DNA of 63,953 bases, the filler included, from Kipferlia bialata (Eukaryota), in the NCBI GenBank assembly GCA_003568945.1. It is 7 parts of 7 records of this genome, joined end to end, with 100 filler letters (N's around TTAATTAATTAA, not from the genome) between each part and the next. Parts side by side here need not be neighbours in the genome. Positions count along the whole stretch, not along the records: positions 12,068 to 24,032 come from BDIP01001153.1; 6 more parts are not named here. One strand, 5' to 3'. The notes under the pieces are model-generated. The model did not search any database and was not told the origin of the DNA. It saw only the letters and a list, made by a program, of their open reading frames with translations. This document shows, piece after piece, positions 1 through 60,345 of this stretch. How positions within the stretch are numbered: position 1 is the first letter of the stretch; each line of letters begins with the position of its first letter. The position numbers were made by a program, and so were the translations under genes.

Positions 1-54
1 TGACCATCTCCCAGTATGTCCCCTGTATGTACTCCCCCCATCCCCCACCCCCAG

Positions 55-3026: not shown

Positions 3027-3306
3027 CAGGGGGGGACACGTACTAGTATATGCTAGGCCTAGTGTATTGTTTAGTTATACAACGATTGACAAGGCAACAC
3101 GTGCCGACGTGTATAGATTAGGAGGTACCGTTGGTGCCTTTCAACAGATGAATCAATTCTATGAAGTGAATCACTATTGACTCCATGTAAGAATCCCATT
3201 TATCCATAAGAAGAATGTGTGAGATATACGTGATGTGACCTATCAGAATACCCACTATACAGCGGGTGTGACCAGATGTCCCATGGTCCCCTTCCAAGCC
3301 CTGTCT

Positions 3307-5219: not shown

Positions 5220-5760
5220 AGCCACCTCTGTCTGTAGCGGACACGGACATCATTGTCTGTGGAGTGAATGTATCGATAGAGACCCGCAAGAGAGAAGCCC
5301 TGTGTCAGAGCAATGAATCATTGACAATGATAATACCTTCGGGCCGTTTTGCGTACGGTGGCAGGAATAATCGGTCCTTGATGACACACGGCGTTACTAG
5401 GCCTAACGCCGAGTCATGGGCAAGGTAGCCAGATCTATTTGGATACCATTGTCACTGCGTTCTACAGGCCTACTAACCGCTATACTGAGTAAGAGACCCT
5501 GAAGACGAGAATCCCCTCTCAGTGTCAATATTAGTGTTGAAGTATCGGTGACATTCAGGTGCTGCAATGCACCACTGGTATCTACATACCCACAGTCTAT
5601 GATTTATAAACATACAGTCCACACAGGGACAGAAGGGGACCGAGCAACACCTCCAAGGCTTGACTCAGTCGTGCACATCAGTTGTGCAATGGACACCAAA
5701 ACAGGGAAACAACAATGAGGCCTCTCCAACCTTGGCCTCTCACAAATCACGTATCTCACA

Positions 5761-7354
5761 TCACATATCGTCCAGCTCAGCCAGCATGGCTTCGAGGTCT
5801 GTGTCAGTGGGGTAGGAGGCGTAGGCCCCAGACACGTGTGACATGGACATGACCTGGGCGATGGGGGTGCTGCCTCTGTCCAGCAGGGCATAGGCTGCGG
5901 CCACGTCCACCCCGCCCACATCTGTGCCTGTCTGGTCAAGGCGCCCTGTGCCCATGGGGGAGGGGTCAGGCAGACAGACACCTGCGGCAAAGGGAGTGCG
6001 GGCCCCCACCTCCAGAGGCACATGGGGCACATCGGAGAGGGTAGACAGCTCTATGCCGTCCGACCCCTCACCCTCTGACGCACCGAAGTACTCACCCTCC
6101 CTGACTGCGTCCTGGTCTGCATAGGATGCGTCAAAGGATGCGTCAGGCGAGGGGTCGAGTGATACTGTGTGGTCGGCTAGATCGTCCAGACATATCCCGT
6201 CCCCCAGCCTAGGCCCCTCTGCCCTCTCCCTGCCCTCCATCACCTCCCAGCTGGAGGGGTCACTCCAGGCACGCGACACAGACTCACTGTCGGCCTCGCA
6301 CCCACACACCCCCCCTAGGGCACCTGTGTCCAGAGAGAAGGACCTCCACTGGCCGAGCCTCTTGGGAGCCAGGCATGACCCTTCCCCAAACACACAGGGA
6401 GCCGCAAAGGGCAGGTGGGTAAGGGCGTTGTTGCGCCGGGCACGGCTCTGGTAGACTGCGGCCACCTCTGCATCACAGGGGTCCTCGGGGACCTCTGGTA
6501 GAGTGAACACGGGCAGGACAGGGAGGGCGGGGGTGGAGGCGGGGCCCTTCCTCTTGACAGCATGGGCGGCATCCCCTGCTGTCCCTGTGCCTGCCTTCCT
6601 GGACCTGTCCTTGCCGGGTCTGGCCATACCCATGAGGGGGGTCTCCAGGGCCAGGCGATCAAAGCATGCCTGGGCCTGGGGTGCCTCTCTCATGCAGGAC
6701 ACGGCCTGCAATGAGGAGCAGCAAATCGATAGGAACACCACTATTTACACTCACCTATAACAGACAATGCTCAATATATAGGACAGTACTGGATGAATAT
6801 TAGGAGGGTAACCATACCTGGTCGCGGTGTGAGTGAAGGGCAGCTATAAGGTCCTCTCTCCGGGACGGTGTCTCCTTAGATGCCGCACACTCGTTGGTGA
6901 GGAAAGGAGACTCGAAGGCACTCTCGTACAGAGTCTCAGTCCCACCAAAGCCAGTCGACTCTTCTACCATGGATGTGACCTCCTCTGTGGTTCCCTCGAA
7001 GTAGGACCCGTCACTGTCAGTCATGGACTCGGCAAGGTGTGCGGAGGGCTGAACACGAGTATAAACCCTGGGCCTGTCTCTCTGGGGCGTAGGGGACACA
7101 TTCATCATAGACCGACGAAGAGCGGGAGTCTGCACAAGGCCAGACATCCCAACATATGCCATCCTGTTGTTGGGCCGACCTGCAGATGGAGGTGGTAGTG
7201 TCTGGCGAACTATACGGGAGGTGTGGGGTACGGCATTGGATCTAGGGGCAGTCCTTGGGGTCGCAGAAGGGGGATTGGGGGTAGCTACTTTGCCACGCTG
7301 TGTGGCAGGGTGCGTAGAACGAGACTTACGGACGCTAAGCCTGGATTGGTGCAT
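5761..7354 (-). CDS. Hypothetical protein, 2 exons (6818-7354, 5761-6705)
   Basis: Two long ORFs join through a phase-0 GTATGG..CTCATTGCAG intron (6706-6817). No family recognised. Confidence 0.6.
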
Positions 7355-7739
7355 CTAGTGCTCCAGAAATACACTCAGAGCAGGATAATACAAGATATTG
7401 GGCGGTGCAGCTATGAAGAAGCGCACAATATCGCTCGTTGGAGCGCTACCAACTTTACCGGCAACTCAAAGCCAGTGTTTCCCAATGATAGAAGTTTCCA
7501 TGGGACCATGTTGTTCAGTTTCCGAATTTCTTGACTGCTATGGTAAGTCTAGCCAAATCTGCTAAACCTGAATGTATGCATATGACCCATAAACCCATAA
7601 CTTAACTGCATTCCTAAGGGTATAGCCTGAAGCCTTCCTTCTTTAGTGGGTTGGCCAATATGCTATCACCCGCGGTCTAGGGTTAGTACCCTAGTGTGAG
7701 ACCTCTGCTGAGTTTTGCTTCTCTAGAGGATACCATAGC

Positions 7740-9066
7740 ATGAGCAACAACCTCCGCTTCGACGGGACTGATATGGATGTGCTCCAAAGGTGGGTTGTAG
7801 TTTGATCTCTACGACTGTGACACATTCACAACCCAGAAACAGAATATTCTCTCTTGTCTTCAATACAGAAGGTGGCACCGCACTGCAGGGCTTGGCCTAA
7901 TGAATACACCCTAGTAGTAGTAGATCTAGTTACTGTAGTTTTGAAGCACTTGGTGATAATGTTCTCTTTACTCCCAGCCTCGTCCAGCTAGGCCTGGGGC
8001 CCCTCTCTGAGACTGAGCTGGATCACATCCGCTCTGAGACAGGTTTGTATCACATCGTAGCATGTGTTCTCCTATCATTGGCCTTCCTACATAGATTGTT
8101 CACCCAGGCTATGAGCTGTCCCATCAGCAGGGGGCCAAGCGCATTGTGTCCCTCAGCCTGGACTCCAGGGTCCCTGAGAGCAGGTGCCTCGACCTGGAGA
8201 TGACCAGACTCAACAGACTCAACCTGCTCTCCACTCTGTCTCTCTCCCGCTGCCGCCTCACCGACCTGGGATCCCTCAACAGCATGGGCGAGACATCTCT
8301 CAAGGTAGACCCCGCACTCTCATGCGCCACTCTCTCTCTGTCACGCTGTCCCCCCACCCCAGATCCTCCTCCTGCCCCACAACGACCTCACTTCCTTCCC
8401 CCCTGGTCTGTCGAGCCTGGCCCAGCTCGAGGTGGGGCGCGCACGCTAGGCTGTCAGCTACCTCTGTACATATATATATCTCATCTCAGGTACTGGACGT
8501 GTCCTTCAACAAGGGCATTACAGAGGTACCGGCCGAGGTCGGGCTCTTGACCCGTCTGAGAGAGTTCAGGGCCAGCAACTGCTCGATCACACACGTGCAC
8601 TCAGGTATACTCTTCTTACACCTCTACTTGGGTATCGGAACCCATTTACACATTGCCATTTTGTGCTCTTGTCTTCTACCACCAGGCTTGGGTGAGTCTG
8701 AGTGCCTTGACCTGGTCGACCTCTCCCACAACTCCATCACCCACCTGCCCCCCTCCCTCAGAGCCTGGTGGGCCAGGGTGAGGCACAGGGAGGGCCTCAA
8801 CACCTCGGTCCTACTGCTAGAGGTGAGTGGCAGCCTACTGTGCACACTCTCCCCCCTACCCTTCTCACCCTCAGGGCAACACTGCCTGCCGCACCGAGCT
8901 GGTTGGGCAGGGCCTCATGCTGCGTGGCGTGACTGTCAGCCCCGTTGCCACCCCCCTGCCCCTGTCCGCCTCGGAGGCAGAGGAGAGGCAGAGGCACGAG
9001 AAGGCCCTCGGCCTGCCTGAGGGTGAGGTGGTGGGGGCAGGGCTGGGGGGGCTCAGGGAGCAGTGA
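7740..9066 (+). CDS. Leucine-rich repeat protein, about 7 exons
   Basis: Spliced product contains LxxLxLxxNxL repeats: ILLLPHNDLTSFPPGLSSLAQLEVLDVSFNKGITEVPAEVGLLTRLREFRASNCSI and LDLVDLSHNSITHLP. Confidence 0.82.
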
Positions 9067-9380
9067 GGCACCAGACCCTCAGCCTAACCTAGCAGAGGGG
9101 AAGGGAAATGGGGAATGAATAGATTGTGAGATATATATGATATGGGCAATGTGGTGGATGTCTATGTGCTATGGCTTGTCAGGCCCTTGAACCCAGCACT
9201 AGACTCTGTCACCAGAAGCACACCAGGGTTGTCCCAATATGTCTCTCAGTCCCATCCTTGAGTCGTGTCACTGACATAACAAGAAATCTATGTCTTCTAG
9301 TTGCAAATAGAAACACGTGTAACTGTAGCTGTAATTGAAGTTGCTATTGAATGTCCATGGAGTTCAGAGGGGAGGGTGAG

Positions 9381-11834
9381 TCACTCTTTCTTCTCCCTGG
9401 TCTCTCCCCCTACATCTCCCGACCCTGTCTCTTCCTCTGTTCCATCTTCGGTCTGTCTGAGCCTCTCTCTCTCCTTCTGCTCTCTGTACGACCTGTGCCA
9501 CTTGAGAGACACAACCAGGGGCAGGTCAGGCGCACACGCCTGTCTGAATGGGGAGGGACTGCGTGACCTATCCCCCATGGCCTCAGCAGGTCCATCACGG
9601 GGTAGGGGCACTAGAAGGGAGGGGTCCGACACATAGTTGTCCATGATGTTATTGGACTGGGCCTTGGAAGCGTCGCTACCTGGGCCGGGCCTTGCAGCAC
9701 CGGTGACCCCTGGTGAAGGGGACATCACCGCTCCCTCCCCTACACTCTGCCCAAGACCCTCTCCCCCTGTGCCTGTGTGGGATGGCATGGCCATGGCCTC
9801 TACGGTGACAACCAGGGCCAGACTCCCGTGCACAGTCACAAACAGGTCATCGCAGTCCCTCACTAGCCCCAGCACCCACCCGCACAGGGGACCAGACCCG
9901 ACAGGCCTCGCCGAGGGGGACAGGGGGAGGGGGGAGCCTGGACTGCCCGACACACCCATGGGTCCCGCCCTTCCCGCCCCTCTCTGCCGCACAAGCCCAG
10001 GGGGGGTGAATGTGTGCACCCGAGAGAACCTCCGCTCCTCCCCCCCCACACAGTGCACCGTGACCACCAGACTGAGTCTGGAGGTGGGCCTGGCATCCAC
10101 CAGGCCCTGGGTGGCGGTGCTGGCCTCAGAGGGCGGCACCCGCTCCAGTGTCAGACACAGCTGTTCAGCATGGGCAGGGCCCCACACCACTAGCCTGGGT
10201 GTGTACACACTCCCGGCCACTGCTATGCCACCCCCTGTGAGAGGTCTGTCCCTGGCCACCAGCTGGGACGGGGCCCGGCACAGCCCCCCACCAGCCCCTG
10301 TGCCTGTGCCTGTCTCCATGTGTGTGCCTATGAAGAAGGGCACGGCCTGTTGCACCGCCTTGTCCCGCCCGTAGTCTGCCGAGGTCAGGGTGCCACAGGT
10401 CCTGCGGAACTGGTACCGCAGCACCTGGTCCAACCTGTCCGGGGTGTACCAGCCCCACCCCTCCACCTCCCCCAGGTCCTCAGCGTCCAGCCCCCCCAGT
10501 CGGATACCGTCCAGACACAGACGGAGGGGGCCCTCCACAGCGGGGTCCCTGGGTCCCTCCCAACCAACATCAGAGGCACCCGCCCTGGGGGACTGGAGAG
10601 ACGGGGAGAGGGGGCGATCCACCGGGTACCCATTGTACACATCATTACAGGCACCACCAGCCTCAGACAAGGAATGCCTTGTATATGCTGTTGGGTCACC
10701 AGAGGGCAGAGCCTGGCCATGGTCTGTCAGTCCTCTATCAGTGTCGGTGCCAGCGCTCCCCAGGGGTCTGTCTCGCATTGCAGAGAGCAGGGTGTGGACA
10801 TAGCGCTGGGTGTGCCTGTCCTCCTGTACCTCATGTGCTGTATGGCTGTGAGAAGTACCAGACCCTGGGTCACGCCTCACTGTTGGGGAGACAGCAGCAT
10901 CTATACCAGCTGGCAAAGGAGACCGGATGTCATTGTTGGCACTGGAGGCAGACACTGCCGCATGACCAGTCGGAGAGGGGGAGGGAGAGGGGGGGAGGGG
11001 AGACACAGGAATGGCCTTTGGATCTCTACCACGCGCCCTCGCCCTCTCTTGCGCCCTCGCCCTATGCGCGGGAGGTACGGCCCCCAGCAGATACCCCCTC
11101 TGCCTCAGAGTGAGTTGGATGGGGTCTCGGACAGACACATGGAGAGCAGCACTGTCCAGATCACCATACACACCACCTGCGCCAGCCCTTCTCCTTACCG
11201 CCATCTGGTGCTGGCGCATGGCTATCACCACTGCCCCCCTCGCCCTGTGTATCTCTGTCTCGACCACACTGCGTCTGTCCGCCACGGCCCTGGCCAGCAC
11301 CCACAGGGGGAGGGCGTCCTCAGTGCCCCTGGCCATGTCGACCAGGAGGTGTCTGCCGGTCACGGCACAGACCACACCCAGCACGGCCTGCATGGAGGGG
11401 TACAGACTGCGGCAGGGCGGGGAAGGGGCAGAATGGGACACGACGCGTGACAGGGCGGGAGAAAGGGCGAGACAGAATGAGCAGAGGTGGGGGAGGTCGG
11501 GGAGGGAGACCTCTCTTCTGAGCTGACTTAGACAGGCAGATGCCAGGCCAGGGAGGCCCATAAAGTCTGCGAATGCTATGAGGGAGGGCAGCAGGTGGTG
11601 GGGGTATCCAGTCTCAGCAGTCAGTGACCGTAGATAGGACAGGATGTGTGGGAATGCCCTGAGGCTGCAGTGCTCCTGTAGCACAAGGGGCAGGGCTAGG
11701 TGGAACACCCCTGAGCTAGCAGTCCACTCTCCACTCACCAGCTTGTCTCTGAACAGAGGGGCTCGGATCAGACACGACGACACAACCCGGAACCGCATGG
11801 GCTCCACATGCAGGATGGAATCGAAAGCCGGCAT
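9381..11834 (-). CDS. Intronless BTB/POZ-domain protein (about 817 aa)
   Basis: Long ORF with a likely ATG at 11834. The N-terminus (FDSILHVEPMRFRVVSSCLIRAPLFRDKL...AFPHILSYL...LIAFADFMGLPGLASACLSQL) follows the BTB pattern. Confidence 0.72.
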   Translation of the reverse strand: MPAFDSILHVEPMRFRVVSSCLIRAPLFRDKLVSGEWTASSGVFHLALPLVLQEHCSLRAFPHILSYLRSLTAETGYPHHLLPSLIAFADFMGLPGLASACLSQLRREVSLPDLPHLCSFCLALSPALSRVVSHSAPSPPCRSLYPSMQAVLGVVCAVTGRHLLVDMARGTEDALPLWVLARAVADRRSVVETEIHRARGAVVIAMRQHQMAVRRRAGAGGVYGDLDSAALHVSVRDPIQLTLRQRGYLLGAVPPAHRARAQERARARGRDPKAIPVSPLPPSPSPSPTGHAAVSASSANNDIRSPLPAGIDAAVSPTVRRDPGSGTSHSHTAHEVQEDRHTQRYVHTLLSAMRDRPLGSAGTDTDRGLTDHGQALPSGDPTAYTRHSLSEAGGACNDVYNGYPVDRPLSPSLQSPRAGASDVGWEGPRDPAVEGPLRLCLDGIRLGGLDAEDLGEVEGWGWYTPDRLDQVLRYQFRRTCGTLTSADYGRDKAVQQAVPFFIGTHMETGTGTGAGGGLCRAPSQLVARDRPLTGGGIAVAGSVYTPRLVVWGPAHAEQLCLTLERVPPSEASTATQGLVDARPTSRLSLVVTVHCVGGEERRFSRVHTFTPPGLVRQRGAGRAGPMGVSGSPGSPLPLSPSARPVGSGPLCGWVLGLVRDCDDLFVTVHGSLALVVTVEAMAMPSHTGTGGEGLGQSVGEGAVMSPSPGVTGAARPGPGSDASKAQSNNIMDNYVSDPSLLVPLPRDGPAEAMGDRSRSPSPFRQACAPDLPLVVSLKWHRSYREQKERERLRQTEDGTEEETGSGDVGGETREKKE

Positions 11835-11967
11835 CCCTGAGGGTATGCTGCTCTCACTCGCTGCACACAGATCCTTTCCGGTGCACTTATAAGAAGGCGG
11901 CAGTATCGACCGCCAGAGAGAAAATGCACACACTGGACCCTTTGTTCACAAAAATCTGACTGAATTG

Positions 11968-12067
11968 NNNNNNNNNNNNNNNNNNNNNNNNNNNNNNNNN
12001 NNNNNNNNNNNTTAATTAATTAANNNNNNNNNNNNNNNNNNNNNNNNNNNNNNNNNNNNNNNNNNNN
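11968..12067. other. Artificial contig-joining spacer (N44-TTAATTAATTAA-N44)
   Basis: Exactly 100 nt with a central 12-mer giving stops in all six frames. The same cassette occurs six times in the window. Confidence 0.97.
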
Positions 12068-12086
12068 GGGGGGGGGGGGGGGGGGG

Positions 12087-12123
<37 letters not shown>

Positions 12124-12278
12124 GATATAGTGGGCATTGAAGGATGTGACATTGGGCAAACAGAGAAGTAGGTACTCTGGAAGGCTTGAGATGGAAGCAT
12201 ACCATGTATATGAATGTACCTGATGCATACAGTGGCGTCAATGGTAATGGTAGAGAGAGAGAGAGACTACTGATGTAC

Positions 12279-12807
12279 CTGATGCATATGGTAGAGTCCT
12301 TGGCATCCAGCTTTGGCAGGACACGCACAAAAGCAGACACACGCTCTTGGGTCCTCAGGGGCTCAAGGCCCTCCTTGGTGCTAGGATGAGAGGGAGGGGG
12401 ATGAGAACACTGAAGGGAGGATCATTGGATCATTGACTGGTTATACAGGATTATAGGTGTTACAATGTTAGCGGTACCATAATACACTACCACAAGACAT
12501 AGTAATGAGTATGAATGAGTATAGCAGTGTGGCACCAATGGTATAGTGCATAGGAGTGGGGGTCATCTGTACCACTCTCTACACTCCCACAATACACAAC
12601 AGCACTCAACAAATCGCAATATATATACACAGTGGTGTGTATAAAACAGTATATGAGAGTGACACACAATATAATATCCTTCCCGGGCAGATATGAGGAC
12701 ACATACCTGGTACCCTTCCAGAGACGGTACAGGGCGGCTGTCCTCAGTTGCACACCATCCGAGAGGAGCTGACTAAAGAGTCCATCCATATCCACAGGTG
12801 ACTCCAT
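12279..12807 (-). CDS. Hypothetical protein, N-terminal exons only (possibly HEAT/ARM-like), truncated by contig end
   Basis: Exons 12707-12807 (MESPVDMDGLFSQLLSDGVQLRTAALYRLWKGT) and 12279-12380 join in frame through a GT..AG intron. Confidence 0.55.
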
Positions 12808-13117
12808 GGAGATTCCCGGCAGTTAGGCTGCCTGCGACTGCTCCTGGAGGGCTGTAGGACACAAGTGAAGACGGTCGCGGTAAAACTCTCTCTCTCTAGT
12901 ACCAAATACTATGGCACTCTCTCTAGTTTGCTCTGATACACCCACTACGACCGTGTTGGGGTCTAGGATGCAGTACTCGAGCGTAACTAGGCTGAAAGAG
13001 GTAGCCTGCTTGGACCCCAGAAGGGTGAGAGAAAATCCAAAAATTCTGGTCCGGAAGATCAGAGTGAGATGCTTCTCTCTCTCGATACACAACCGAGGCC
13101 AGAGGTCAGAGTATACC

Positions 13118-13974
13118 ATGCACCCCTCATTCAACATGCAGCACACACCTGGGCCCCGCCCTCAGTCCACTAGGGGCAGTATCGCCCGCTCCAACCGCAG
13201 TACGTAGCTTGATCACTCTCTTGTATCTATACCTCTCTCACCCTTGCCAATCTGAAGGATCACCCTCTATTTGTATCTATGTCACTTTCTCATCCCCTAG
13301 CCAGTCTGAAGGATAGCTTGATCACCCTCTATTTGTATCTATGCCACTCTCTCACCCTAGCCAGTCTGAAGGATGTGGCCACCCCCACCACACACCACGT
13401 CCTGACAATGGACAAGGACGTGATGCCCAAGGAGTGCGCCTCACGGTAAGTGACCCCCCCCCCCCCCATCACCACCACACAGTGCAACAGCTATCTCTGC
13501 TTGTTTTCCCTCGTCTCTTTCTTTCTCGCTGTTATTCATTCTAATCCCTCACCGTATACTCATGCACTATTCACAGTCCGTATATTCATACACTGAGATG
13601 ACTTATATGTGATGCCCCCCCCCCCCCCCCTTCAGTGACATATTCTTTTGTATTTGTGTATAATTCTTCTCTCTTCTGATCCCAAGAGAGTTGATCCTTG
13701 GCGCCAACTACGCTGCCTCTGATAAGGAGTTTGACAAGCTGCTCTCTATGGAGAGACGCACAGCCAGTGTACGCATACTTAACAGATACTCAGTCAATCA
13801 AGTCTTATCTAGATTATGATTGTATTACCTCTCCGCTTGTGATTCATATACCACTGTGTGTCTATCTGCCTCTTATCCCAGGCTAGGAAGGCACGGGCAG
13901 AGAAGGCTAGAAGGGAGAGAGAAGAGAGGGAGAGACAGACTGAGAGGGAGGGTGATGAGGAGAGGCCCCAGTGA
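13118..13974 (+). CDS. Small hypothetical protein (about 120 aa, 4 exons)
   Basis: MHPSFNMQHTPGPRPQ..., SLKDVATPTTHHVLTMDKD..., ELILGANYAASDKEFDKLL... and ARKARAEKARRERE...PQ* join in frame. One acceptor is AAG. Confidence 0.6.
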
Positions 13975-15220: not shown

Positions 15221-15839
15221 ATGCACTACCTCCCTGTCCTGCTGTGCCTGTGTGCATGGGTGTGCATGACTGTGGCCGAGTGCCCCCCCGAGGGAGAGGC
15301 AGACCCATCAGACATCGGGGCAGTGGTGGTGCTCTCAATTGAGGTATGGCATCATGACATATTTATAGGGAGATATATATAGATGGGTGTCCCCCCCCTC
15401 CCCCCTTCCTCTCACCCATGTGGCGTGTAATATAGTTAATGTGGGGTTGTTGTTAGCATATAGGTATGTTCTTGCTCAGTTGTTGTGTAACTAAGTACTG
15501 ATTTCCTATCCATTCATGGCCCTAACTCCCAGGGCGTCAACAAGCTTGCTGCCGACTCCATCCCAGACATCGAGGCATCTGCATTTGACCTCAAGATGGA
15601 GTACGTACCCTCTCACTCTCTCTCTCTCTCCCTCCAATATGCCTAGTGGCTACACGCTCCACATACACTCCATGCTATAGTGGAAACATGAGATGTACTT
15701 GAGTGCTCTCATCCTGGGATAACATCACGCTACTCTCGACTATCAACTATTCAGTTCCCACCCCCCTGAGGTTATTTGAGCATCTAGTAACATTGTTGTC
15801 AACTAGAGTCTATCTGTCGATGTCGTCTCTCCCTCTCTA

Positions 15840-15885
<46 letters not shown>

Positions 15886-15932
15886 TCTCCACCCTTACAC
15901 CCAGTGACATTGACACCTCCCTTGACCTTGTT

Positions 15933-15976
<44 letters not shown>

Positions 15977-16100
15977 CCCTTACACCCAGTGACATTAACA
16001 CCTCCCTTGACCTTGGCATCACTGTGGTTGATCTCTCAATCACCCAGCTCCTCTTTGCCAACTTCCACATCGGAGATATCAAGGGTATGTACACCTCTGA

Positions 16101-16132
<32 letters not shown>

Positions 16133-16695
16133 TCTCTCTCTCTTTCTCCCTCCCTCAATCCTCTCTCACCCCAGCCACCTCTCTGCCCCTGACCCAGGAG
16201 CTCATGCTCAACATGTAAGTGAAAATGGATAATATATATATGTATACTATAGATTCTAATAGATATATATCACATATAGTTGAAGTGGCAATGTATATGG
16301 ATTCTAATAGTATAGTGATATAAATATCACATATATAGTAGACCAGTATCTGTATGCATGTATGTATTTATGTAGAAGTACTTTTATCCCTGACCCAGGA
16401 GCTCATGGTCAACATGTAAGTGAAAGTGGATATACTGATACTGATTTGTATGTCGTGCCTAAACCTTTCCTATCAAGTAATTCATGCCTATATTTACATA
16501 TATATATATATATATTTATATTTAGGTATCGTCACCCTCTCTCTCTCAAGACCGCTTACACCAGGGATGACCTTGACCTTCAGCTGACCTTTCTCTCTGC
16601 CTATCTCTCTCTCTGTGTGTCTCTCTCTCTTTCTGTTAAAAGGATATACCCTTATACCAGGGATGACCTTGACCTTGAGCTGACCTTTCTCTTCT

Positions 16696-16740
<45 letters not shown>

Positions 16741-17694
16741 AGACGCTTATACCAGGGATGACCTTGACCTTGAGCTGACCTTTGACTGGGAGTACACAGA
16801 GGAGAGCTGGCCATTCAGCAAGGATAGCGGAACAGGTATGAATTCTCTCTCTGAACAGGTATGAATTCTCTCTCTGAATTGCTATATATATATGAGTATA
16901 TTCCTTTCAATATGTTTATATATACTCTACACATGACTAATGCATGAGGCACTGCCACCTGCACTGACTTCTCTCTCTCTCTCTCCTTCTCTCTCACTCT
17001 CTCTCTCTCTATTCATACACTTATACATCAGGCACTGCCACCTGCACTGGCATCTCTCTCTCACACTCTCTCACTATATATATACCTATTATTCTCACTC
17101 TAGGCACTGCCACCTGCACTGGCATTGGGGGTGAGGTTGTCATGGGGGTGGGGTTCGACCATGTCTGTGGTGTCCCGCAGGTATGGCTCTCTCTCTCTCT
17201 AATGTGTTTGTATGAATGGTGTCTCCATTGCCCCTCAGGTATCTAGTAGTAGGATGTACTCCCATACACATATATATAATATATATAATATATATATGTA
17301 TATAATATATATATATATTATATACATATACATGTGTATGGAGTGATTAGAGTGGGGATTGACCATGTTTTGGATACCTCATGTTTATATATGTGGCATA
17401 TGTATCTATGAAAATGTGTAATATCGATGTATGCTACGGTATCTCTCTCTTTCTCTTCCTCCGCTGTCATATATATCGATGATGTGTTCTCTCTCTCCCT
17501 CTACACCCTTAATTCCAGTTCATGGCTGACAGTGTCCTATTCTCTCTCTCTCCCCCTCTACACCCTTTATCCCAGTTCATGGCTGACAGTGTCAACCTGG
17601 ACCTCGGCGACATCAAGATCACACTCGACGGTATGGCATAATGCCTATTATACATGTACTGGGTGTCGTTTTGAGACACCACACTCTCTCTCTC

Positions 17695-17743
<49 letters not shown>

Positions 17744-19335
17744 AATAGTAAAGGTGGTGCCTCTCAGCTCTTCCAGCTCATCCTCAATGCATTCATCTCT
17801 CTCCCTCTCTCTCTCTATCTCTCTCTCTATCTTATATATAAGCGGTGCCTCTATCTATATATACTTATCTTACCCCTAGGTGGTGCCTCTCAGCTGTTCC
17901 AGCTCATTCTCAATGCCTTCATAGGACTGGTGGAGGATCTGTTCACAGATGAGCTCAACACACTCATTGCTGCTAGTATGACTGAAGGTACATAATTAGA
18001 CACACACACATATATATATATATATAGTATACATATACATTTATGTCATTGGACTGGTGGAGGACCTCTTCACAGACGAGCTCAACACTCTGATAGCTGC
18101 TAGCATGACTGAGGGTGAGTGTGTATATAATATACATATTATATACTATATTCTTACACACATATGTCTTCTGTCTACCCATCTCTCCCTCTCTTTCTCT
18201 CTCTCCCCCTCACCCCAGCCATCAACGAGGGTATTCAAGAGAGTACTGGACCTTCAAACGTCCCAGACGGCATGAAGGAGGTATATATATAACTATACTA
18301 ATATATGTATATATATGTGTGTGGATACATTATATATGAATAATATGTCAGTATTCATAAGTGCTATTATAGTATGTGATGGGTCTTACTTCCCAGACGG
18401 CATAAAGGAGGTATATAGCTAAGTATATAAGAATATTCTATGTGTATATAATATAATGCATACTATATAATGGAGAGAGAGACGTCCCAGACGGCATGAA
18501 GGAGGTATGACTACATGCTACTTTTATATATATATTTATGAATTGTGTTCCTTGTACTAGTATATATATATGTATATGAATACTGCCTTACCCCAGGACT
18601 TCCGCAGTCCCAACCCAGTTGTTGTCCTGGAGGACAACTACATCGCCATCCACTTCACAGCTTATGTAAGTGATTTCCACTGATGCCATATAGATGGATA
18701 TTGCGCTTTTTTGCTTGCTGCTGCTCACTCTCAGTATACATTTCTCTCTCCCCTTCCCTTACCCCCAGATCTACCCTGCCGACGAGGGTCCCACATGGTC
18801 AGGTACGCAATATCAGTATATGGGTATATATATGAATACATATACCTTTCAGTTCATTAGTCAGTGTATATATAGAGTGTCAGAGAGGTCTACCCTGCAG
18901 GTGAGGGTCCCACATGGGCAGGTACACTGCCTCTCTCTCTCTCATACATACACACATATATATGTTCTCTCTCTCCCTCTACCATCTGCCATGATGACAC
19001 AACATGATGACACAATTTCGTCATACCTACCCAATAGAACCAATGTATACACATCTACACATACATGTATATATTGCAGTGTATACCAAACCCACCCCAG
19101 CCCGTGATGCTATCATGCCCACCCCATTGCCCAACCTGGTCACCAGTGAGGACCTGCAGTTCGTGCTGTCCAACACGTACGTGATCCTCGCTCTCATACT
19201 GTTCTCTCTCATATATGAACATGAACTATCCCTCCATCTCTCTCTCTCCCCCCGACCCCAGTACACTTTCAGTGCATGTATCTCTCTCTCTCTCTCTCTC
19301 CCTACCCCCTTTACCCCAGTCTGTTTGAGTCCATG

Positions 19336-19371
<36 letters not shown>

Positions 19372-22298
19372 TATTCCTACCCCCTCTTTACCCCAGTCTG
19401 TTTGAGTCCTTGTTCCTCTCCAGTCTCCACCTTGGACTGCTCAAGGGCCAGGTCGACCCAGCTAAGGTAACTCCTCTATATATGTATAGATTCAGTCACC
19501 TATGTTCGTTCTCTTCCTTTCGGTACTGATACTCCTTTACCCAAGACCCCCAGCTGGCATCTCATCGTAAGGTACCATGTATACAGTATATATATGTTTG
19601 TTCATATATTACACCATATATATATAGTAGTACAGTAGTTAAGTAAATATATACATATATCATTAGTATTCTATAAATACATTGTGAGTATCTAACAATT
19701 AGGTCCAGGACCCCCAGCTGGCCTCTCTCCTGACCACCACATCCCTGGGGGCCATATGCCCAGGTATTGTATGGACATGTATACATACATAGTATGTATG
19801 TCCATTATATGTGTATATGACAATGTATATATCTCCTGACCGCCACATCCCTGGGAGCCATATGCCCAGGTATAGTATATCCCGATTCCAAAGTCACCTC
19901 TCTCTCTCTGACTAGACATATACTGTTTCATATACCTCATCCCTAGGCCTGTATGAGGCATACCCCGATGCCACAGTCCCATCTCTCTCTCTCNNNNNNN
20001 NNNNNNNNNNNNNNNNNNNNNNNNNNNNNNNNNNNNNNNNNNNNNNNNNNNNNNNNNNNNNNNNNNNNNNNNNNNNNNNNNNNNNNNNNNNNNNNNNNNN
20101 NNNNNNNNNNNNNNNNNNNNNNNNNNNNNNNNNNNNNNNNNNNNNNNNNNNNNNNNNNNNNNNNNNNNNNNNNNNNNNNNNNNNNNNNNNNNNNNNNNNN
20201 NNNNNNNNNNNNNNNNNNNNNNNNNNNNNNNNNNNNNNNNNNNNNNNNNNNNNNNNNNNNNNNNNNNNNNNNNNNNNNNNNNNNNNNNNNNNNNNNNNNN
20301 NNNNNNNNNNNNNNNNNNNNNNNNNNNNNNNNNNNNNNNNNNNNNNNNNNNNNNNNNNNNNNNNNNNNNNNNNNNNNNNNNNNNNNNNNNNNNNNNNNNN
20401 NNNNNNNNNNNNNNNNNNNNNNNNNNNNNNNNNNNNNNNNNNNNNNNNNNNNNNNNNNNNNNNNNNNNNNNNNNNNNNNNNNNNNNNNNNNNNNNNNNNN
20501 NNNNNNNNNNNNNNNNNNNNNNNNNNNNNNNNNNNNNNNNNNNNNNNNNNNNNNNNNNNNNNNNNNNNNNNNNNNNNNNNNNNNNNNNNNNNNNNNNNNN
20601 NNNNNNNNNNNNNNNNNNNNNNNNNNNNNNNNNNNNNNNNNNNNNNNNNNNNNNNNNNNNNNNNNNNNNNNNNNNNNNNNNNNNNNNNNNNNNNNNNNNN
20701 NNNNNNNNNNNNNNNNNNNNNNNNNNNNNNNNNNNNNNNNNNNNNNNNNNNNNNNNNNNNNNNNNNNNNNNNNNNNNNNNNNNNNNNNNNNNNNNNNNNN
20801 NNNNNNNNNNNNNNNNNNNNNNNNNNNNNNNNNNNNNNNNNNNNNNNNNNNNNNNNNNNNNNNNNNNNNNNNNNNNNNNNNNNNNNNNNNNNNNNNNNNN
20901 NNNNNNNNNNNNNNNNNNNNNNNNNNNNNNNNNNNNNNNNNNNNNNNNNNNNNNNNNNNNNNNNNNNNNNNNNNNNTATATGGACAGACGTATGGTTAAT
21001 GAATAGAGGCCACAGTCACTCTGGACCTCGACGCAACAGAGATGTAAGTGCAGATATGTATAGATATTTATGCCTGTGGCTAGATGCCAGTTTCCCAACT
21101 TTCTCTCTCTCTCTCTCTTTCTCTTGCTCACTCTCTCTCTCTCTACACCCTTAATGTCAGGCCCACCGTCACTGTCATGCCCAGTGCCCTGTTCTCCAAC
21201 GTCACAGGTACTTTCTCTCTCTTTTCCTCTCTGTCGGGTTGTACATAAGTGAATAGTGTGGTATTCACGTTTCTAACTGTCCATGTTTCTCTCCCCCCCC
21301 CCCTCTCTCTCTCAATATCTCACCCAGGCACTGTACATGTCTCTGTACATGATGAGGCCTCTCAGTCTATGGTCGACACCTTCACTGTCGGGTACAGTGT
21401 TGGACTTGCTGGTACACCCCAGTCACTCACAGGTATGTCTCTCTCTCACTCTCTCACTCTCTCTCCCCCCCCCCTCTCTCTTCCTCTCCCCTACTAAACC
21501 CTTACCTCAGAAACCCTGCACAATGCCGAGAATATGACCACCTTCTATATCGACTACACCCCCTACAACACCACTGGCTGGGAGATCGAGTCCAGCTATG
21601 GCCCAGTTGATATGGAGGGACCATCCGCCATGATGCTGCAGGTACATCATACACACATATATATATAGTAATATACATATATATGGTTGAGTTGATTATA
21701 GCATATGGATATGGATATAGAAGGCTCTACCTAGGGCCCTGTGGACATGGAGTCCATCTGCCATGATGCTGCAGGTGTATACAAGAATATATGTATATCT
21801 GTGTGTGTTGATATTTCTGTATGTTATGTCACATAACTTTCGTGTTTGTGAATTATCCATTTACTATTTTATACTGTTGATCTGTATATCTCTCAACACC
21901 CTCATCAAGTGAGTATCTTTCACCTTCCCTCTCTCTCTCTCTCTCTCTCTACACCCTTATTCCCAGATGTACCTCTCCTTCCTTGGTGTTGTGCCTTGGT
22001 TCAGTGACTGGACTCTACGCCACTCACCAAACTTCGGAATTGCAGGGGTACGATTGATGCTTGTATTGATAGACTACTTCTCTTCATTCCAGCCGTTATT
22101 ACCTGTATTGGTAGATTTCTCACGCCTTCACATCATACTAATTCGTCAGACTCAGTGACGTTTGAATAGACATATTATCAATATACCCTCATTCTCTCTC
22201 CCTCTCCCTCTTTCAGTCTCTCTATCGAGACCCTCATTTCACACCAGGACTTCTATGACTGGCAGAGTATATACCCTTGTTCTCCTTCTCTCTCTCTC

Positions 22299-22330
<32 letters not shown>

Positions 22331-22569
22331 CCTAGACCCTTATTTCACCCCAGGACTTCTATGACTGGCAGAACATGTACTCGGTGCTTGAGGTGAGTGT
22401 TCGTCTCTTGGATGTTGTGTCTGCAGTTGTCTCACTCTCTTCATTCATATGTCGGCATTCTACAAGATGCATTCTTCCTATATCCTCTCATATCCGACTT
22501 AGTTTCTCATCCTAGCCCCCTGGTGCTATAGTGTACAACGTGGCTATGATGCAGGACCTGCCAGTCTAG
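15221..22569 (+). CDS. Secreted BPI/LBP-like (TULIP) lipid-binding protein, many small exons, spans an N gap
   Basis: Signal peptide MHYLPVLLCLCAWVCMTVA, then GAVVVLSIEGVNKLA, LTFDWEYTEESWPFSKDSGTGTA and LGDIKITLDGGASQLFQLILNAFIGLVEDLFTDEL, which resemble the BPI N-terminal domain. Last exon is 22516-22569. Confidence 0.7.
19994..20976. other. Assembly gap (N run) inside the BPI-like gene
   Basis: Uninterrupted Ns without the stop-linker, flanked by exons of the same gene. Confidence 0.95.
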
Positions 22570-28500: not shown

Positions 28501-30451
28501 GCAAACTCAAAGGAGGAGACCAGCCTCTGCACATCCTCACTGTCCTCAGTGTCACTCTCCTTATCTGCCTCTCTCTCTCCCTCCGTATCAGTAGGTGGTA
28601 CTACTGACATGACCACGGCAGGGGCTGATACTACTGCATCAGGTGCAGCCTCTGGTACTGGTACTGGTACTGCCTCATCTACAGAGAGGGACGATGCACT
28701 CGGCTCCCTCTCTCTGACCCTCTCTATCCCTGCATCCAGGTCCCTATCTGCACTCAGCTTCTGTCTGAAGTAGGCCCTGAACGTGAGAAGACATATATTC
28801 CCGAGATACATGTGTAGGACTGTGTATCTGGAGTATATATATATATATAGGTATCCACTGACCTACTGGGTCTCTTCCTTAGGACAGGCCGACCAGAGGG
28901 GGGTGGAGGAGTGCGTGGCAGGATGGGTGGTGGGGCCACCTCACTCTCTCCCTCTCCGTCTCCCTCTCCCTCAGCAGGTGTCTCCCCATCTGTGTCTGGT
29001 GATAGAGAGAGGGTGGGTATCACCGGTGGCTGTGCCTTCCTCTCTGTAGGAGACCCAACCTCTATACTGGGGGGCCGCGCACTCGTGTAGGAGGGCTTCT
29101 TGGATATGCTCTTGCGCTGCCTGGGCGGCTTGGCAGGTACACCCTTCCTCTCTCTCTCTCTCTGAGGGAGAGGGGGGATAGCGTCTGAGCCGGTGCTAGG
29201 CTGTGTCTTCCCCTTTGCCCCCTTCCCCCTAGCCCTCATGTCTCTGGGTGGTGCCAGACTGTCAGAGACAGAGGTGCTGTTACGCTTGATGTTCCTGGGG
29301 TGAGAAACACCATACACGCATCAAACGTATGATATGATAGAGAATGGTTAACTCACTTGGTCTTGGTCTGTGCCCTGGCCTTCATCAGCGCCTCCTTCTT
29401 CTCTCTCTCCTCCTTCTGCTTCCTCTCTCTCTCCACCTCCACCCGACACTGTTCCCGGAGGTTGAACGCTCTATGGTCAGCTTCAGTGGAGTGTGAGAGG
29501 AGTAACCAGATAGTGGGTATAGTAGTAATCAGTACCTAGTCTGAATCTCCAGTGGGGCGTCGGTTCCTGCTAAGAGTTTCTCTAGAGGAGCCTCAGCCTC
29601 AGCATACTGGTGTGTGTAGACAAGCTCCTGCAATGAGAATGAAGATAGTATAGGAGATAGTATAGAAGAGACTATTTTAAGCTACACTGGGCACACTCAC
29701 CTGACACATGCAGAGAGCCGATATCGGTGCGAACTTTGCCCACTCTGTTCTGTATGCCACAGGGGGGCCCATTGTGGATAGTAACTGGCTGCTGGTGACC
29801 CCAGGCACCTGGGAGCTGTCGGAGGTGGGTGAGGAGGCATCACAGAGAGCCACAGAGCGCCTGGCAGCCTGGAGGGCCTGGGGGTGCCTATGGTGAGAGG
29901 AGAGGATGTACCTGGGTATATATTGGGCGATAAGAACTCCACAGTATACACATAGGGATACTGGCCCCACCTGTTGCACTGTGCGTATGCAGTGGATAGG
30001 TTGAGGACCACCCTAGGCAGCGGGGGAGGGGTGATGACAGAGTGACCCCCGGCCACAGCCCTCTCCTCCATCTGGGGTCAGGGACAGCAAATATTTAGAC
30101 ATGATACACCCTATATATAGGGTCAGGGACCTCTCCTCCATCCGGGGTCAGGGATACATGGATAAACTATGTATATAGTAATCACTATATATGTATGGGT
30201 GAGCGACAGTACATATGAAGAGGGATACATACTATGGATACACACTATGGACACACTATGGACACACTATGGATACACACTATTAATTGGGTCAGGGACA
30301 TAGTGATACAGGGAGCAAGGTCACACAGGAGTGATGGGAGAAGGGGGGGGGGGCGTACCTGCAGCCTAACACCATCCAGAGCGGCAAGACCCGATGCACA
30401 GCCTGTCAGTGCCTCCACAGCCAGGGGGAAGAGACCCTCCCGTAGCATGAC
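25586..30451 (-). CDS. Large protein, 5' partial: helical (possibly TPR-like) region, coiled coil and a very long Glu/Ala/Val/Pro-rich acidic tail
   Basis: The terminal exon lies in the 907-aa ORF 25586-28309. Upstream ORF segments have GT..AG boundaries up to 30451. Confidence 0.7.
30226..30283 (+). repeat. Intronic tandem repeat of ACACTATGG(AC/ATAC), about 4-5 units
   Basis: actatggatacacactatggacacactatggacacactatggatacacactat. Confidence 0.8.
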
Positions 30452-30522
30452 CTAAGGGGTGAGAGAGGAAAGAAATGGAAGAGGGGGGGGGGGGGGGGGG
30501 GGGGGAGAAGTTGGGGGGACAT

Positions 30523-30622
30523 NNNNNNNNNNNNNNNNNNNNNNNNNNNNNNNNNNNNNNNNNNNNTTAATTAATTAANNNNNNNNNNNNNNNNNNNNNN
30601 NNNNNNNNNNNNNNNNNNNNNN
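30523..30622. other. Artificial contig-joining spacer
   Basis: N44-TTAATTAATTAA-N44. Confidence 0.97.
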
Positions 30623-30633
30623 AAGAGGGAGAA

Positions 30634-30664
<31 letters not shown>

Positions 30665-31054
30665 GAGAGAGAGGGATGTATCAAGTACCATTCAGTGGTA
30701 CTAAAGGTTGCGGGATGGCTCCCTGTGTATGTATCTAAGTATTAGATAGTATGTATATGTACCTGCATACCAGTATGCACTGTGTGCGAAGAAGACCTTG
30801 GAACTGACACACGGCTAGGGAGGATCCCCCACCCCCTACAATACCCATGTGGGTGTGTGGGTGGGTGTGTGTATGTGTGTGGCTGAGCCACACAGCAACA
30901 GGAGAGGAACAGAGGCTAGGACTCTATTGCCACTGGCTGTATAGAGGGTGTCACCAAGGGGGTCCAAAAACAACGAACGAGAGAATCGGTGTGACACTCT
31001 CTAACCATACACATACTGTCACCACAACGTCCGCCTGCCAACCTTCTCTAAGGC

Positions 31055-42795: not shown

Positions 42796-44773
42796 GTCTA
42801 CTGTGACCTGTATGAGTACAACACGGTGTCAGGTGGACTTAGGAGACAGGAGAGGGTGTCGGGGGATGACTACTCGATAGAGTTGTCTGCAGCAGTGGGA
42901 GAGTACTCAGCGGATGAGTCATACTCCAAGGTATATATACTGTCTATATGTATGTATATATATAGAGAGAGAGACAGGAGAGGGTGTCAGGGGATGACTA
43001 CTCGATAGAGCTAAGTGCCGCAACTGGGGCATACAGTGCTAGTGAGTCATACTCTAAGGTATATTTATGTATGTGGCATACAGTGCTAGTGAGTCATACT
43101 CCAAGGTATAAGTGTATGTGATATGTATGGTATTTACCGGTCGTATTCTAATCCGAGGTTGTCGTATCTATGTTTCTACTGTCACTGATACAGATGGGGC
43201 AGACTACATACACACACACACTCCATGTATATGTATGTGTGTGTACTAACCCTAGATCGTAGTCCCTGGTGCCACCTCCACCTTCACACATGGGACAGAC
43301 TACTCTCTCTCTCTCTCTCTTGCTCTCTTTATCTCTCTCTCTATGTATATATACTCACTCTAGGTTGTGATATCCGGTGCCACTCCTACGACCAGTACAG
43401 ATGGGGCAGACTACACCATATACGCAGGGACAACGAGCTCGGTGTACCTGGCACTGCTAGATGAGTACGTATACTACATACACCTAAACATTTGTAACTA
43501 TATATGTAAACATATGTATATATACGCACTACTGGACGAGTGAGTATATATAGACACTCTGTCCCTATAGCCTATGTATCTATACATATGCAATCTTTCT
43601 AATATATATATTGTATATAGACGCAGAGGCTTACTCTAGATACGGCATCAGTATTCTAGCCGATACCTCTGCCTCAGAGTACCCCCTGGTCATATATATA
43701 CTGTATACAGTACATGATTGTACTATATATAAACACACTACTACACACTCACTATATAGGTATGGTATCAGCATCCTAGCCGACACCTCTGCCTCAGAGG
43801 ACACCCTGGTCACAGGCACTCTGGATGTGACACTGGACAGCAGAGAGACATCGCAGGTACTAGAGATAAGAATGTATATCTATTGAACTCTATGTGTACC
43901 TGTATATTCACTAACTGTTTACGCTTTATCACCTCCCACCCCAGGTCGGGTCCAGGGTCACAGATATATATCATATGTACATACGTGTACTATATATATA
44001 TATATATATATATTTATCATTTATATATCCTATGCATTACTCACCCCAGGTCGGGTCCAGGGTCACCGACATGATCGACACAGACGGGGTGAGTGTGTAC
44101 ATATATATACTTATATGTATATGCGTATATATACTATGTATATACATGTATTGTCATACATACCGTGTCACAGACGTGATCGACACAGACGGGGTGGGTG
44201 GTGGGTATATTTCTCAGTCAGTGTGTATATATAGTTCACTTCCTGATATCCAATAACATAGTCCTTGTCTCTGAGGCATCTCTCCCTCTCTCCCCCCCCC
44301 CTCTCTCTCTACCTATATTCCTCACATCAGATCTCCTATAACATAGCCACTGCCCTTGTCTCCGAGGCATCCTTTGAGACAGACACAGTCCGGATCAGTC
44401 ATGAGGTATGGGTAAATATACAATACTATTGTACTGATACTTGATTTAATATTCATAGTGAATATTGCATTGCAAACATGAGTGTGCCTTTACCCCAGGT
44501 CCGCTTTGACGGGTACTCTATGCTGACATACGAGGGCACCAACACATTCATGACTGGGACTGAAGGTACTCTAATATTGATATAGACATTTGATTCTTTA
44601 TACATGTGGAGGGTACCTCTCTGTCTCTCTCTCTCTCTCTCTCCCTAGACCCTTATTTCAGGCTATCTTGTCCTCCCCTGTGAGTTGAATATACTAACCT
44701 CTCTCTCTCCCTCTCACTCTCCCTAGACCCTTATTTTCAGGCTATCTAGTCTTACCCTTCGAGTTGATTTTGC

Positions 44774-49748: not shown

Positions 49749-51915
49749 TCACTTCACCAGGGTTAACACGGCTGATAGTAGCCTTGACCTGTGGAGACTC
49801 TTGGCAATGGTGTCTCTCTCTCTCTCTCCCTCCTTCTTCAAGTGCTGCTGGACTAGATTGCCTAGGAAGAGGCCGCAGAGTGATGCTCTGACTGTCTCGG
49901 AAGAGAGGGGGAGAGTGGACCTGGGATGAAATAGTACGTAGCTACATATGCTAGGTTCAAGTACAAATGCTAGGTAAAAGTACATATACGTATGTATATA
50001 TATATCATAGTGCTCTGACTGTCTCTGAAGAGAGGAGGAGAGTGGACCTGAGGTTATATACTTCATGGGTACTATACAAACACCTAATTCCTCTATATAT
50101 GTATACTATACTAAACACTCATACCCTTGTCCTCCTCCTTTGTGCATGTGACACTGCACTGTGTGTGTATGCACACACAGACACAGTGTAGACAGGGGTA
50201 TCTGTCTCTCTCTCTCCCTGTTTCTCTCTCTGATGCTGAAGGTCTTCCTCAACCTCTGTCTCTACCTCTTGTTCCCGACTTAGCCGCTCCTCTGCCCTTC
50301 TTGCACCCTCGACTCCATCCTGACAATGTCAGTATATATGTACATACACACACATACATATACACATAAATATACATACACACACGTGCTATGGTCAACT
50401 CATTCTAGGGGTGTCAGTATGCATATACTAATCCATATATGGGAGATAGTATCATATGTAGGAATACATCCGGGATGTCATCAACTATATACACTATGTA
50501 CATAGGCATTCCTGTTTACAAATTCTATATATATACATAGATACCAGAATCCCAATTTGCCCTTTGTCCTGACAATGTAAGTGTGTGTAACAGTACCGTC
50601 TGTATACCCACACACAATTAGAACTACCCTCGTTAATACACTAAGAACATGTAGATACATACCTTCGTGTACCCCTTGCACACCGATGTCACGACAAGCA
50701 TGGCACCATGACCTAAAGGGTCAGAAGCATTTCACAGAATCTACACGAGAGAATACGCCAATCGAAACTCAGAAGATAATGCAGAGCCCAATGTATGTGT
50801 TCCCATACCTGCCAAGAACTCCACAGCCAACGGTGTGCTCTGGATAACACCAGTTGGGTCTTCTCTCTCTACGGCCCCATCCCTATCAGAATCTCTGTCC
50901 TCTCTCTCTCTCTCTGCCTCCTGTTGGACACAGGCATCCTCAGTCTCTAGCTCTACAGTGAGAGGTGTACAAATATGAGTATGCATATGCCATTCCACGC
51001 ATATTCTACACATAAACTAGTATACGCACCTATCATAAGTGGTCTCAGTATGAGTGTTGTAGCATGGGCTGTCAGGACACACCTCATGTAGGGTATATAT
51101 ACATATGTACACTAATACATATGAACCAGTAGATGTACATTACCTATCATCAAGGGCCTCAGTATGAGTGTCGTGCCATGGGCAGTCAGGACATATATGT
51201 CACTGTACTCTACACCACTGGTGGCAGAGCTAGTGGCCCTTGTCCAAGACTCGGCAATGGGTGTGTGGCCAACAATGACCATACCGTTCTAGGGGGTAAG
51301 TGGATACATACTGATACATACAATATAATGAATGTCAATATATATGGATCTGAGCAATGATAGTACAACATGGTCTATATACACTATCCCCATGCACTGT
51401 CTATTGTGACAATCTCTCTCTATACCTGATTGATACAGGTACAATATGGTCTCTCCACCCCATCCCCATGCACTGTCTCCCTTCCACTGTCCAGTGTGTC
51501 TATGATATATATATATATATCAATATATATATATATGAGTACCTGGTTAATAGACGTGCAATAGGGTCTCTCCATGTTGTCTCCATGCACTGTCTCCCTT
51601 CCACTGTCCAGTGTGTCTATGACAGAGGCAGAGACTGGGGCATGTCTCTGGAACAGACTGGTCCTATTGATTAGTGTATACACTATACATGCATATACAT
51701 ATATATATATGTAACTGTCCAGTGTGTCTATGACAGAGGCAGAGACAATAGCCTCACGTCTAAAGAGACTGGTCCTAGTGATAAGCATAGAGTATGTGTA
51801 TACTATGAATATGGGTATATATAAATGTAGAGAGAGAGTATCAATGGCAGAGGCAGAGAGCATGCCTCTGGAAGAGAGTGGTCCTGGCGTCAATATGGAT
51901 ATACATATATATATG

Positions 51916-54486: not shown

Positions 54487-54515
54487 CTATGTCTGATATT
54501 AGTATACACATAAAG

Positions 54516-54567
<52 letters not shown>

Positions 54568-54667: not shown

Positions 54668-54726
54668 ATCTTTATGCCGTTCTATACTGTCCCCCCCCCC
54701 CCCCCCCCCTCCCCCTCCACCCTCAG

Positions 54727-60339: not shown

Positions 60340-60345
60340 TGGTGG

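Follow-up and report, generated by a model that had tools for sequence, protein, structure and literature searches.

WHO elements are homing elements described at FBA1 in Torulaspora and Lachancea (Coughlan et al. 2020, PMC7282813). As set out in the portion of that paper drawn on here, a WHO event at yeast FBA1 swaps the gene's 3' end for that of another allele and the old fragments stack; the FBA1 alleles in these yeasts are 85% identical. Polymerase theta, according to excerpts of PMC8654963 and PMC7368036, gives rise to tandem duplications and templated insertions, and intron gain by tandem genomic duplication has been reviewed in PMC3443670, used here in part.

Here we describe partial copies of exon ends that lie, together with splice sites, in the introns of Kipferlia bialata. 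The window, that is, the whole stretch of DNA analysed, is 63,953 nucleotides long and consists of seven short contigs joined by N linkers. The likeness to WHO events, on the sections of PMC7282813 cited, would be that one end of a coding region is replaced from another allele while the old end is left beside the gene, and that fragments begin at shared positions and stack, common breakpoints occurring here as well. Unlike a WHO element as described there, the Kipferlia unit has no endonuclease gene (the extra material seen in contigs is further 5' copies) and measures about 60-230 nt rather than kilobases; copies are of both 5' and 3' ends, inside introns and with splice sites, and they are spread over numerous exons of unrelated genes (in four genes, 37 of 112 exon ends) rather than confined to one target. 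The feature is not a WHO element. Polymerase theta products resemble the copies in being short local duplications and may also do so in having a few bases of microhomology, but in the accounts excerpted they start identical and decay at all sites, whereas the Kipferlia copies show coding-type divergence and unrelated splice sites. Like intron gain by tandem duplication, the Kipferlia arrangement has part of an exon duplicated, the duplicate spliced out and the protein left as it was; in contrast to the cases in the part of PMC3443670 considered, no new intron arises, and the duplicate includes an existing splice site within an existing intron. At the exon studied most closely, exon 7 is spliced to exon 8 across all 5' copies as one intron, and the feature is no instance of intron gain by tandem duplication.

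Mutually exclusive tandem exon duplicates are neighbouring exon copies with mainly silent divergence. Unlike these, the Kipferlia copies are partial and have one splice site each, a near-full copy at 18888-18921 being the exception, and at the focal exon they are absent from the RNA contig, contigs being prone to lose rare variants. They are not a mutually exclusive exon pair.

According to the part of PMC8516963 used, Ku and DNA-PKcs are absent from metamonads, and in fornicates Rad51A has been lost and Dmc1 is present twice; its supplement, in the section used, lists PolQ, Spo11 and Msh2 for K. bialata. DMC1 tolerates mismatches (PMC7809202, excerpt), and K. bialata is reported to have 87 of 174 spliceosomal proteins and no snRNA candidates (PMC6679479, excerpt). 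The same excerpt of PMC6679479 makes no mention of such copies; the main text of the K. bialata genome paper (PMC5874029) has no occurrence of 'duplicat', 'allel', 'heterozyg' or 'ploid'; and the literature searched, subscription journals and the supplements of PMC5874029 aside, holds no description of the feature for Kipferlia, which is thus apparently undescribed.

An exon nested within a recoded copy of itself

The focal exon belongs to a BPI/LBP-family gene (15221..22566, plus strand) of 510 amino acids and 21 exons, one of them interrupted by an assembly gap; its introns contain 17 copies of exon ends. The protein is matched by Pfam PF02886 (E-value 6.5e-9), and one database protein, whose source label is Kipferlia bialata, matches the focal exon. 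Exact spliced alignment of P0001 places exon 7 at 17576..17630 (+). The focal exon, working exon 8 (hereafter E), occupies 17880..17987 (+) by spliced alignment and by RNA and DNA contigs; it is 108 nt long, is bounded by AG and GT, and has phase 1-1.

Upstream lies A' (17754..17796, +), a copy of exon bases 1-43 with 3 silent differences and no donor, whose 3' end is TCAT followed by a CT tract. The interval up to E (17797..17879, +) comprises, from the sequence, contig pieces and depth sums, a CT/TA tract, the stub of one further 5' copy (17844-17852) and the acceptor of E. On the other side, E's donor and a CA/TA-rich intron head (17988..18045, +) lead to B' (18046..18114, +), which opens with TCAT, copies exon bases 40-108 with 9 silent differences, has no acceptor and is followed by a GTGAGT donor. 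The sequence comparison thus bears out the arrangement proposed in an initial annotation, in which E is nested within a split, recoded copy of itself and all 12 differences are synonymous third-position changes. Over the 35 codons common to E (17880-17987) and the halves 17754-17797 and 18051-18114, 12/12 differences are at third positions and 12/12 are synonymous (P = 1e-5 to 6.5e-5 for 12/12 silent, under a model of neutral copies and an E that changes silently only).

The annotation further held that the halves abut exactly and that the differences divide into 4 and 8. The meeting is indeed near-exact, but the halves overlap by TCAT (exon bases 1-43 and 40-108), which occurs twice, at 17793-17796 and 18046-18049, flanking the inner block; the CT tract accounts equally well for the 'ATC' codon at the end of A', so that the total of 12 stands and the split becomes 3 + 9. 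The chance of halves meeting this closely is 0.06-0.10 at E's length, and the near-exact meeting alone is only suggestive. As to the splice signals of the halves, the donor after B' is normal (6.2 versus 6.1 bits), while the acceptor-like site of A' (17740..17753, +) is weak, being unlike E's acceptor at 12 of 14 bases and scoring -4.9 bits against a mean of 10.3 for real acceptors (56 scored).

The 253-nt block between the halves contains a microsatellite, an acceptor, the exon and a donor, and is probably under-assembled. Several identities for the arrangement were rejected. A DNA transposon would agree with the 4-nt direct repeat, but the block ends (a CT tract and a TA-rich end) are not reverse-complementary; an old intron at the junction is at odds with the lack of GT after A' and of AG before B'; and repair from spliced mRNA is at odds with E having its own intronic acceptor.

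Exon-end copies in four genes

The annotation describes a single event, but this is not a one-off: it is one instance of something common in these genes. Self-comparison of the window yields dozens of local pairs 57-311 nt apart, mostly within four genes, and no local pairs in 1-13200, 30200-41900 or 54100-60500. The four genes, namely the BPI gene, G2, G3 and a gene that we take from its motifs to be RecQ-like, were modelled with 61 exons and 56 introns, three of them from database proteins by exact spliced alignment and the RecQ-like gene by hand. Copies were counted with a codon-blind, ungapped scan anchored at exon ends, in which splice dinucleotides were not required; unanchored local alignment gave several doubtful gapped matches, and the counts come from the anchored scan only. 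A copy is present in the adjoining intron at 37 of 112 exon ends, a rate that is not genome-wide because the four genes were picked for their visible copies. Among controls, other-gene pairs gave a copy in 0 of 4988 cases and wrong-end pairs in 1 of 112. The geometry is constant: copies of 5' ends lie upstream of the exon and copies of 3' ends downstream.

Together the 44 copies cover 1280 nt and show, relative to their exons, 80 silent and 27 replacement changes (20, 9 and 78 at the three codon positions), giving a pN/pS of 0.10-0.14; none of the 44 anchored copies contains a stop codon. Against a neutral copy beside a silently drifting exon, P is at most 2.2e-10, or at most 9e-8 when the focal exon is left out. 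The silent and replacement counts are 19/13 in the BPI gene, where the silent excess is due to the focal pair, 39/9 in G2, 21/5 in G3 and 1/0 in the RecQ-like gene. The proposal that both versions evolved as coding sequence is accordingly supported at the focal exon and over the 44 copies (pN/pS about 0.1).

Further exons lie between copies of their own two ends. In the BPI gene, exon 19703-19763 (19539..19869, +) has a 5' copy of bases 1-25 and a 3' copy of bases 24-61, overlapping by 2; in G2, exon 44050-44088 (43945..44193, +) has copies that overlap by 8-11 and both read ACA where the exon reads ACC; and in G3, exon 51663-51543 (51426..51774, minus strand) has a 5' copy of bases 1-61 and a 3' copy of bases 42-121, both of which match the exon for 33-40 bases at the breakpoint and are diverged at the splice site. 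A long 3' copy at 42971..43058 (+) has one difference in its first 40 bases and then dense change, including two TCN/AGT serine swaps. Some copies share a breakpoint, as do a pair ending at base 28 (16565 and 16661) and a pair starting at base 40 (18388 and 18482). Stacked copies at 42971-43105 (+) and 51363-51505 (-) share variants missing from the working exon, and inner copies are at times more diverged than outer ones (44741 versus 44662; 43268 versus 43189). Stacked copies have mosaic histories.

That the feature is present in four unrelated genes argues against donors that are diverged paralogs, in which ectopic repair from another gene copy would have brought in the exon or its halves. 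The high silent distance reported below would suit paralogs, but three protein searches returned one protein each in a one-sequence cluster (1/18, 1/7997 and 1/6 candidates, as tests weak ones), and the aligned DNA contigs contain one 3' part only, B' itself not being aligned and the sensitivity near 87% identity being unproven. We regard paralogous donors as very unlikely.

Splice sites, divergence gradient and breakpoints

The splice dinucleotides are kept in 43 of 44 copies (AG in 22/23 upstream copies and GT in 21/21 downstream copies). Acceptors of the modelled introns roughly follow CCYT(A/C)ACCCCAG, in which a branch-like A stands 7 bases ahead of the intron end (56 introns), and donors a loose GTRN; the compact acceptor motif recalls the fused branch/acceptor motif of Giardia. 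Copy acceptors average 8.5 bits against 9.8 for real ones, that of A' being among three with a poor score. In 11 of the 23, at least 6 of 14 bases are unlike the acceptor of the exon itself, in some cases before an identical exon part. Being consensus-like but unrelated, they look like independently evolved working sites rather than copies of the present site. The outer site scores at least as well as the used one in 11/23 cases for acceptors and 14/21 for donors. One acceptor of the RecQ-like gene (61865-61866, -; 1 of 56 introns) reads AT rather than AG beside a poly-C run and is either an assembly error or a non-canonical site.

Divergence is unevenly spread along the longer copies. For 13 copies of at least 37 nt, third positions mismatch at 15/110 in the breakpoint half and at 55/108 in the splice-site half (P = 3e-9 when 6 edge bases are excluded); both this and the overlap test below include four long copies added by hand from local alignment, one of them replacing its shortened version. 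Several long copies match the exon exactly over 28-40 bases, beyond which change is dense and includes TCN/AGY serine swaps. About half of the third positions differ in the outer halves, where the corrected third-position distance is about 0.85. Until recently, the sequence from which the outer parts of long copies descend must have been translated. There is little gradient in the focal pair, whose first differences lie 5 and 4 bases away from the junction. The silent changes show an AT bias on the copy side (33 versus 19, P = 0.07), a hint of some asymmetry.

Length matters as well (P = 0.005): copies of up to 30 nt show 22 silent and 16 replacement differences, 12 of the 32 being identical to the exon, and those above 30 nt show 58 silent and 11 replacement differences. 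Short copies are thus close to neutral and longer ones are not, as would be expected if only long copies can recombine.

Short copies alone are what a plain local duplicate would explain, since it starts identical and with the same splice site and decays at all sites. In the fuller form of this explanation, the copies are local duplicates within one lineage that are kept coding-intact because conversion or pop-out sometimes makes the copy the working exon. The identical blocks of 28-40 nt at breakpoints would permit such exchange, short copies do decay nearly neutrally, the stacks are mosaic with common breakpoints, and sex is not needed. Yet exchange that purges replacement changes would presumably also homogenise or delete the copy, the population mutation rate required for a silent distance near 0.85 would be implausibly large, and consensus-like but unrelated acceptors before identical exon parts are left unexplained; we consider it unlikely. 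The suggestion in the initial annotation that silent copies are kept by conversion is disfavoured for the same kind of reason, as events that test a copy would also erase its divergence.

Only 21 of 47 breakpoints are in contact with a dinucleotide tract, the background being 30%, and direct repeats occur at the copy junctions (TCAT at the focal exon and 2-20 nt elsewhere). Where an exon has copies on both sides, these meet within 5 nt in 3 of 7 cases (expected 1.0-1.2, P = 0.06-0.09) and within -5 to +11 in 5 of 7 (expected 1.7, P = 0.004-0.009), the latter range being chosen post hoc; three further exons (16756, 17104 and 43364), each with a weak, sub-threshold second copy recognised by eye, do not meet, which makes it 5 of 10. 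Close meeting is only a hint of a single insertion.

DNA copy number and RNA use

Two public runs, X1 (DNA) and X2, were examined, both as contigs, which lose rare variants; X1 may be the source of the window's assembly and is then not independent, and X2 is presumed to be RNA, its contig joining exon 7 to E, unlike the DNA. In X1, one contig represents E with its flanks (depth 447, 0 differences), another represents A' with its own acceptor and runs into the CT tract (depth 406), and three records end at the same exon base into the CT tract. On the 5' side of the focal exon the copies are real DNA, with coding-type divergence. The like depth of E and of single 5' copies (406-447) fits one haplotype that carries all of them.

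Summed over distinct contigs, DNA depth is 8.2-8.3 times that of E across E's 5' part (five word positions) and 1.0 times across its 3' part, on the basis of 8 of 11 aligned DNA records and assuming 31-letter words and a depth proportional to copy number. The flanks upstream differ among the contigs over E's 5' part, and the contigs show a longer stub at 17844 than the window does. About seven 5' copies are therefore probable in the real intron, collapsed to one in the assembly, and we infer that all of them lie within this one intron. In the read layout the sites of A' and B' were skipped as repeats, A'-type contigs being placed on E and B' being left without cover.

These contigs weigh against an assembly artefact in which two haplotypes are interleaved via microsatellites. 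The window does consist of short contigs with gaps, the block upstream of E is under-assembled and X1 is perhaps the window's source, but a separate contig set joins A' and its own acceptor to the CT tract, with three records ending so, where an intact second haplotype would run on into exon sequence. In addition, 0.96 of the words sampled from 17400-19900 are present in X1, and the strict placement of 5' copies upstream and 3' copies downstream, with the divergence gradient, would be foreign to such an error, which we judge scarcely credible.

In X2, a single 1761-nt contig of depth 254, whose loose end is the 3' end of exon 7 (17576..17630), has exon 7 spliced directly to E with 0 differences; no X2 contig with copy variants aligned (1 of 174,042 records aligned, in contigs that lose rare variants). 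The main mRNA uses the inner exon E and bypasses the copies, as seen at one exon in one run of contigs. The RNA check proposed for the recoded variants thus returned one contig, with E only, among contigs in which rare variants are lost and B' was not coverable.

The copies might still be used, if rare or conditional transcripts, or DNA-level excision between short direct repeats, gave an intact message. Intact splice sites and a low replacement rate are as expected from present use, and direct repeats flank the block (TCAT here, 2-20 nt elsewhere). Position 18888-18921 (+) is a near-complete copy of the 34-nt exon 18769-18802, with AG before, GT after and the same phase, and so amounts to a full AG...GT exon; it has three or four amino-acid changes and an acceptor that lacks the usual pyrimidine/branch motif, and is the best candidate here for a true alternative exon. 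At the focal exon, by contrast, A' lacks a donor and B' an acceptor, an unchanged peptide would result, the A' DNA contig enters the CT tract at depth 406 against 447 for E, and the RNA contig joins exon 7 to E with 0 differences, which, since contigs lose rare variants, leaves room for low use. For elimination of the ciliate type, with pointer repeats, the same near-full depth of A' into the CT tract applies, and no joint is found among the aligned DNA contigs, in whose layout both copies' sites were skipped as repeats. Non-canonical excision, one of the options offered earlier, finds no support in an RNA contig with E only and a joined form in no aligned DNA contig, and use of the copies seems quite unlikely.

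Origin of the copies

The copies are best explained, with a probability of about 0.6, as relics of diverged working alleles that were displaced by exon-confined recombination finished at microhomology. The pattern itself is strong, and allele exchange is the mechanism that we infer from it. Another allele is the simplest source of the copies' outer parts, the donor alleles themselves being postulated: in two metagenome scans for a second strain or allele, 0 of 140 and 0 of 38 candidate stretches were confirmed.

Under this explanation, a break in the exon or in the adjoining CT/TA tract would first be finished by microhomology-primed joining of the polymerase theta type, duplicating the exon end and its splice site on one or both sides of one break. 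Homologous exchange could then anchor only in exons and their copies, because introns of different alleles share little but microsatellites. With a copy as second anchor, an allele that bears one would act as repair template: its exon end would be installed, while the recipient's working exon end and splice site would become the outer part of the copy. Unequal exchange would pile up further copies with a common breakpoint. The spliceosome would pick the innermost AG and GT around the intact exon, and copies would therefore cost little and decay. The gradient, the foreign splice sites and the length effect are predicted by repair from an allele that bears a copy. The repair genes given above for metamonads, fornicates and K. 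bialata, together with the mismatch tolerance of DMC1, also speak for this reading. The focal exon may have taken a special route, since both its halves show differences from E as far as the TCAT junction: either a foreign exon, whole and with its flanks, would have been copied into one break, or E would later have been overwritten by conversion. Of the earlier options, replacement by a diverged allele or paralog comes closest to this reading in its allele version, but most other copies fit exchange that touches only the outer part of the copy.

A silent distance of about 0.85 lies far above the silent diversity within species of diverse eukaryotes, so that the allele model needs hybridising lineages or long-lived allele lines. 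Also counting against the model are the lack of an endonuclease gene in the inserted block, the modest share of breakpoints at dinucleotide tracts, the AT bias of the silent changes and an RNA result confined to the focal exon and one run of contigs. A wider version, which we put forward tentatively and hold to be somewhat doubtful, is an exon-by-exon ratchet of allele replacement, in which exon ends and introns would spread between deeply diverged lineages by WHO-like conversion in the absence of a local nuclease gene; the exon end and splice site in use before each event would stay behind in the intron. If it were true, introns would be built largely by this process, the genome would be a stratified archive of past alleles and direct evidence of genetic exchange, and a reduced spliceosome would be ignoring equally good outer splice sites.

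If the allele reading is right, a record of recombination between deeply diverged alleles is preserved in the single genome of a free-living Giardia relative, and this in a group for which gene lists have been the main ground for inferring sex; there would also be a route for intron growth and turnover while proteins stay fixed. The copies are also a natural test of splice-site choice, the outer sites being often as good and the inner site being used at the one exon checked, and a warning that short-read assemblies collapse such arrays and that gene predictors can choose the wrong copy.

Other arrays in the window

At least three stacked 5' copies, with duplicated intron pieces, occupy the first intron of G3 (53782-54102, -). 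A fifth gene has the feature at 13205-13374 (+), where three tandem 62-nt units each contain an acceptor and the first 14 exon bases. At 19978-21012 (+), a gap of 983 N splits a BPI exon whose left part ends in a CT tract like a 5' copy, and the gap probably conceals another copy array. Intron-containing genes at 1-11967, 30623-41900 and 54668-60239 are without exon-end copies in the self-comparison; copies concentrate in genes whose introns are rich in TA and CT tracts.
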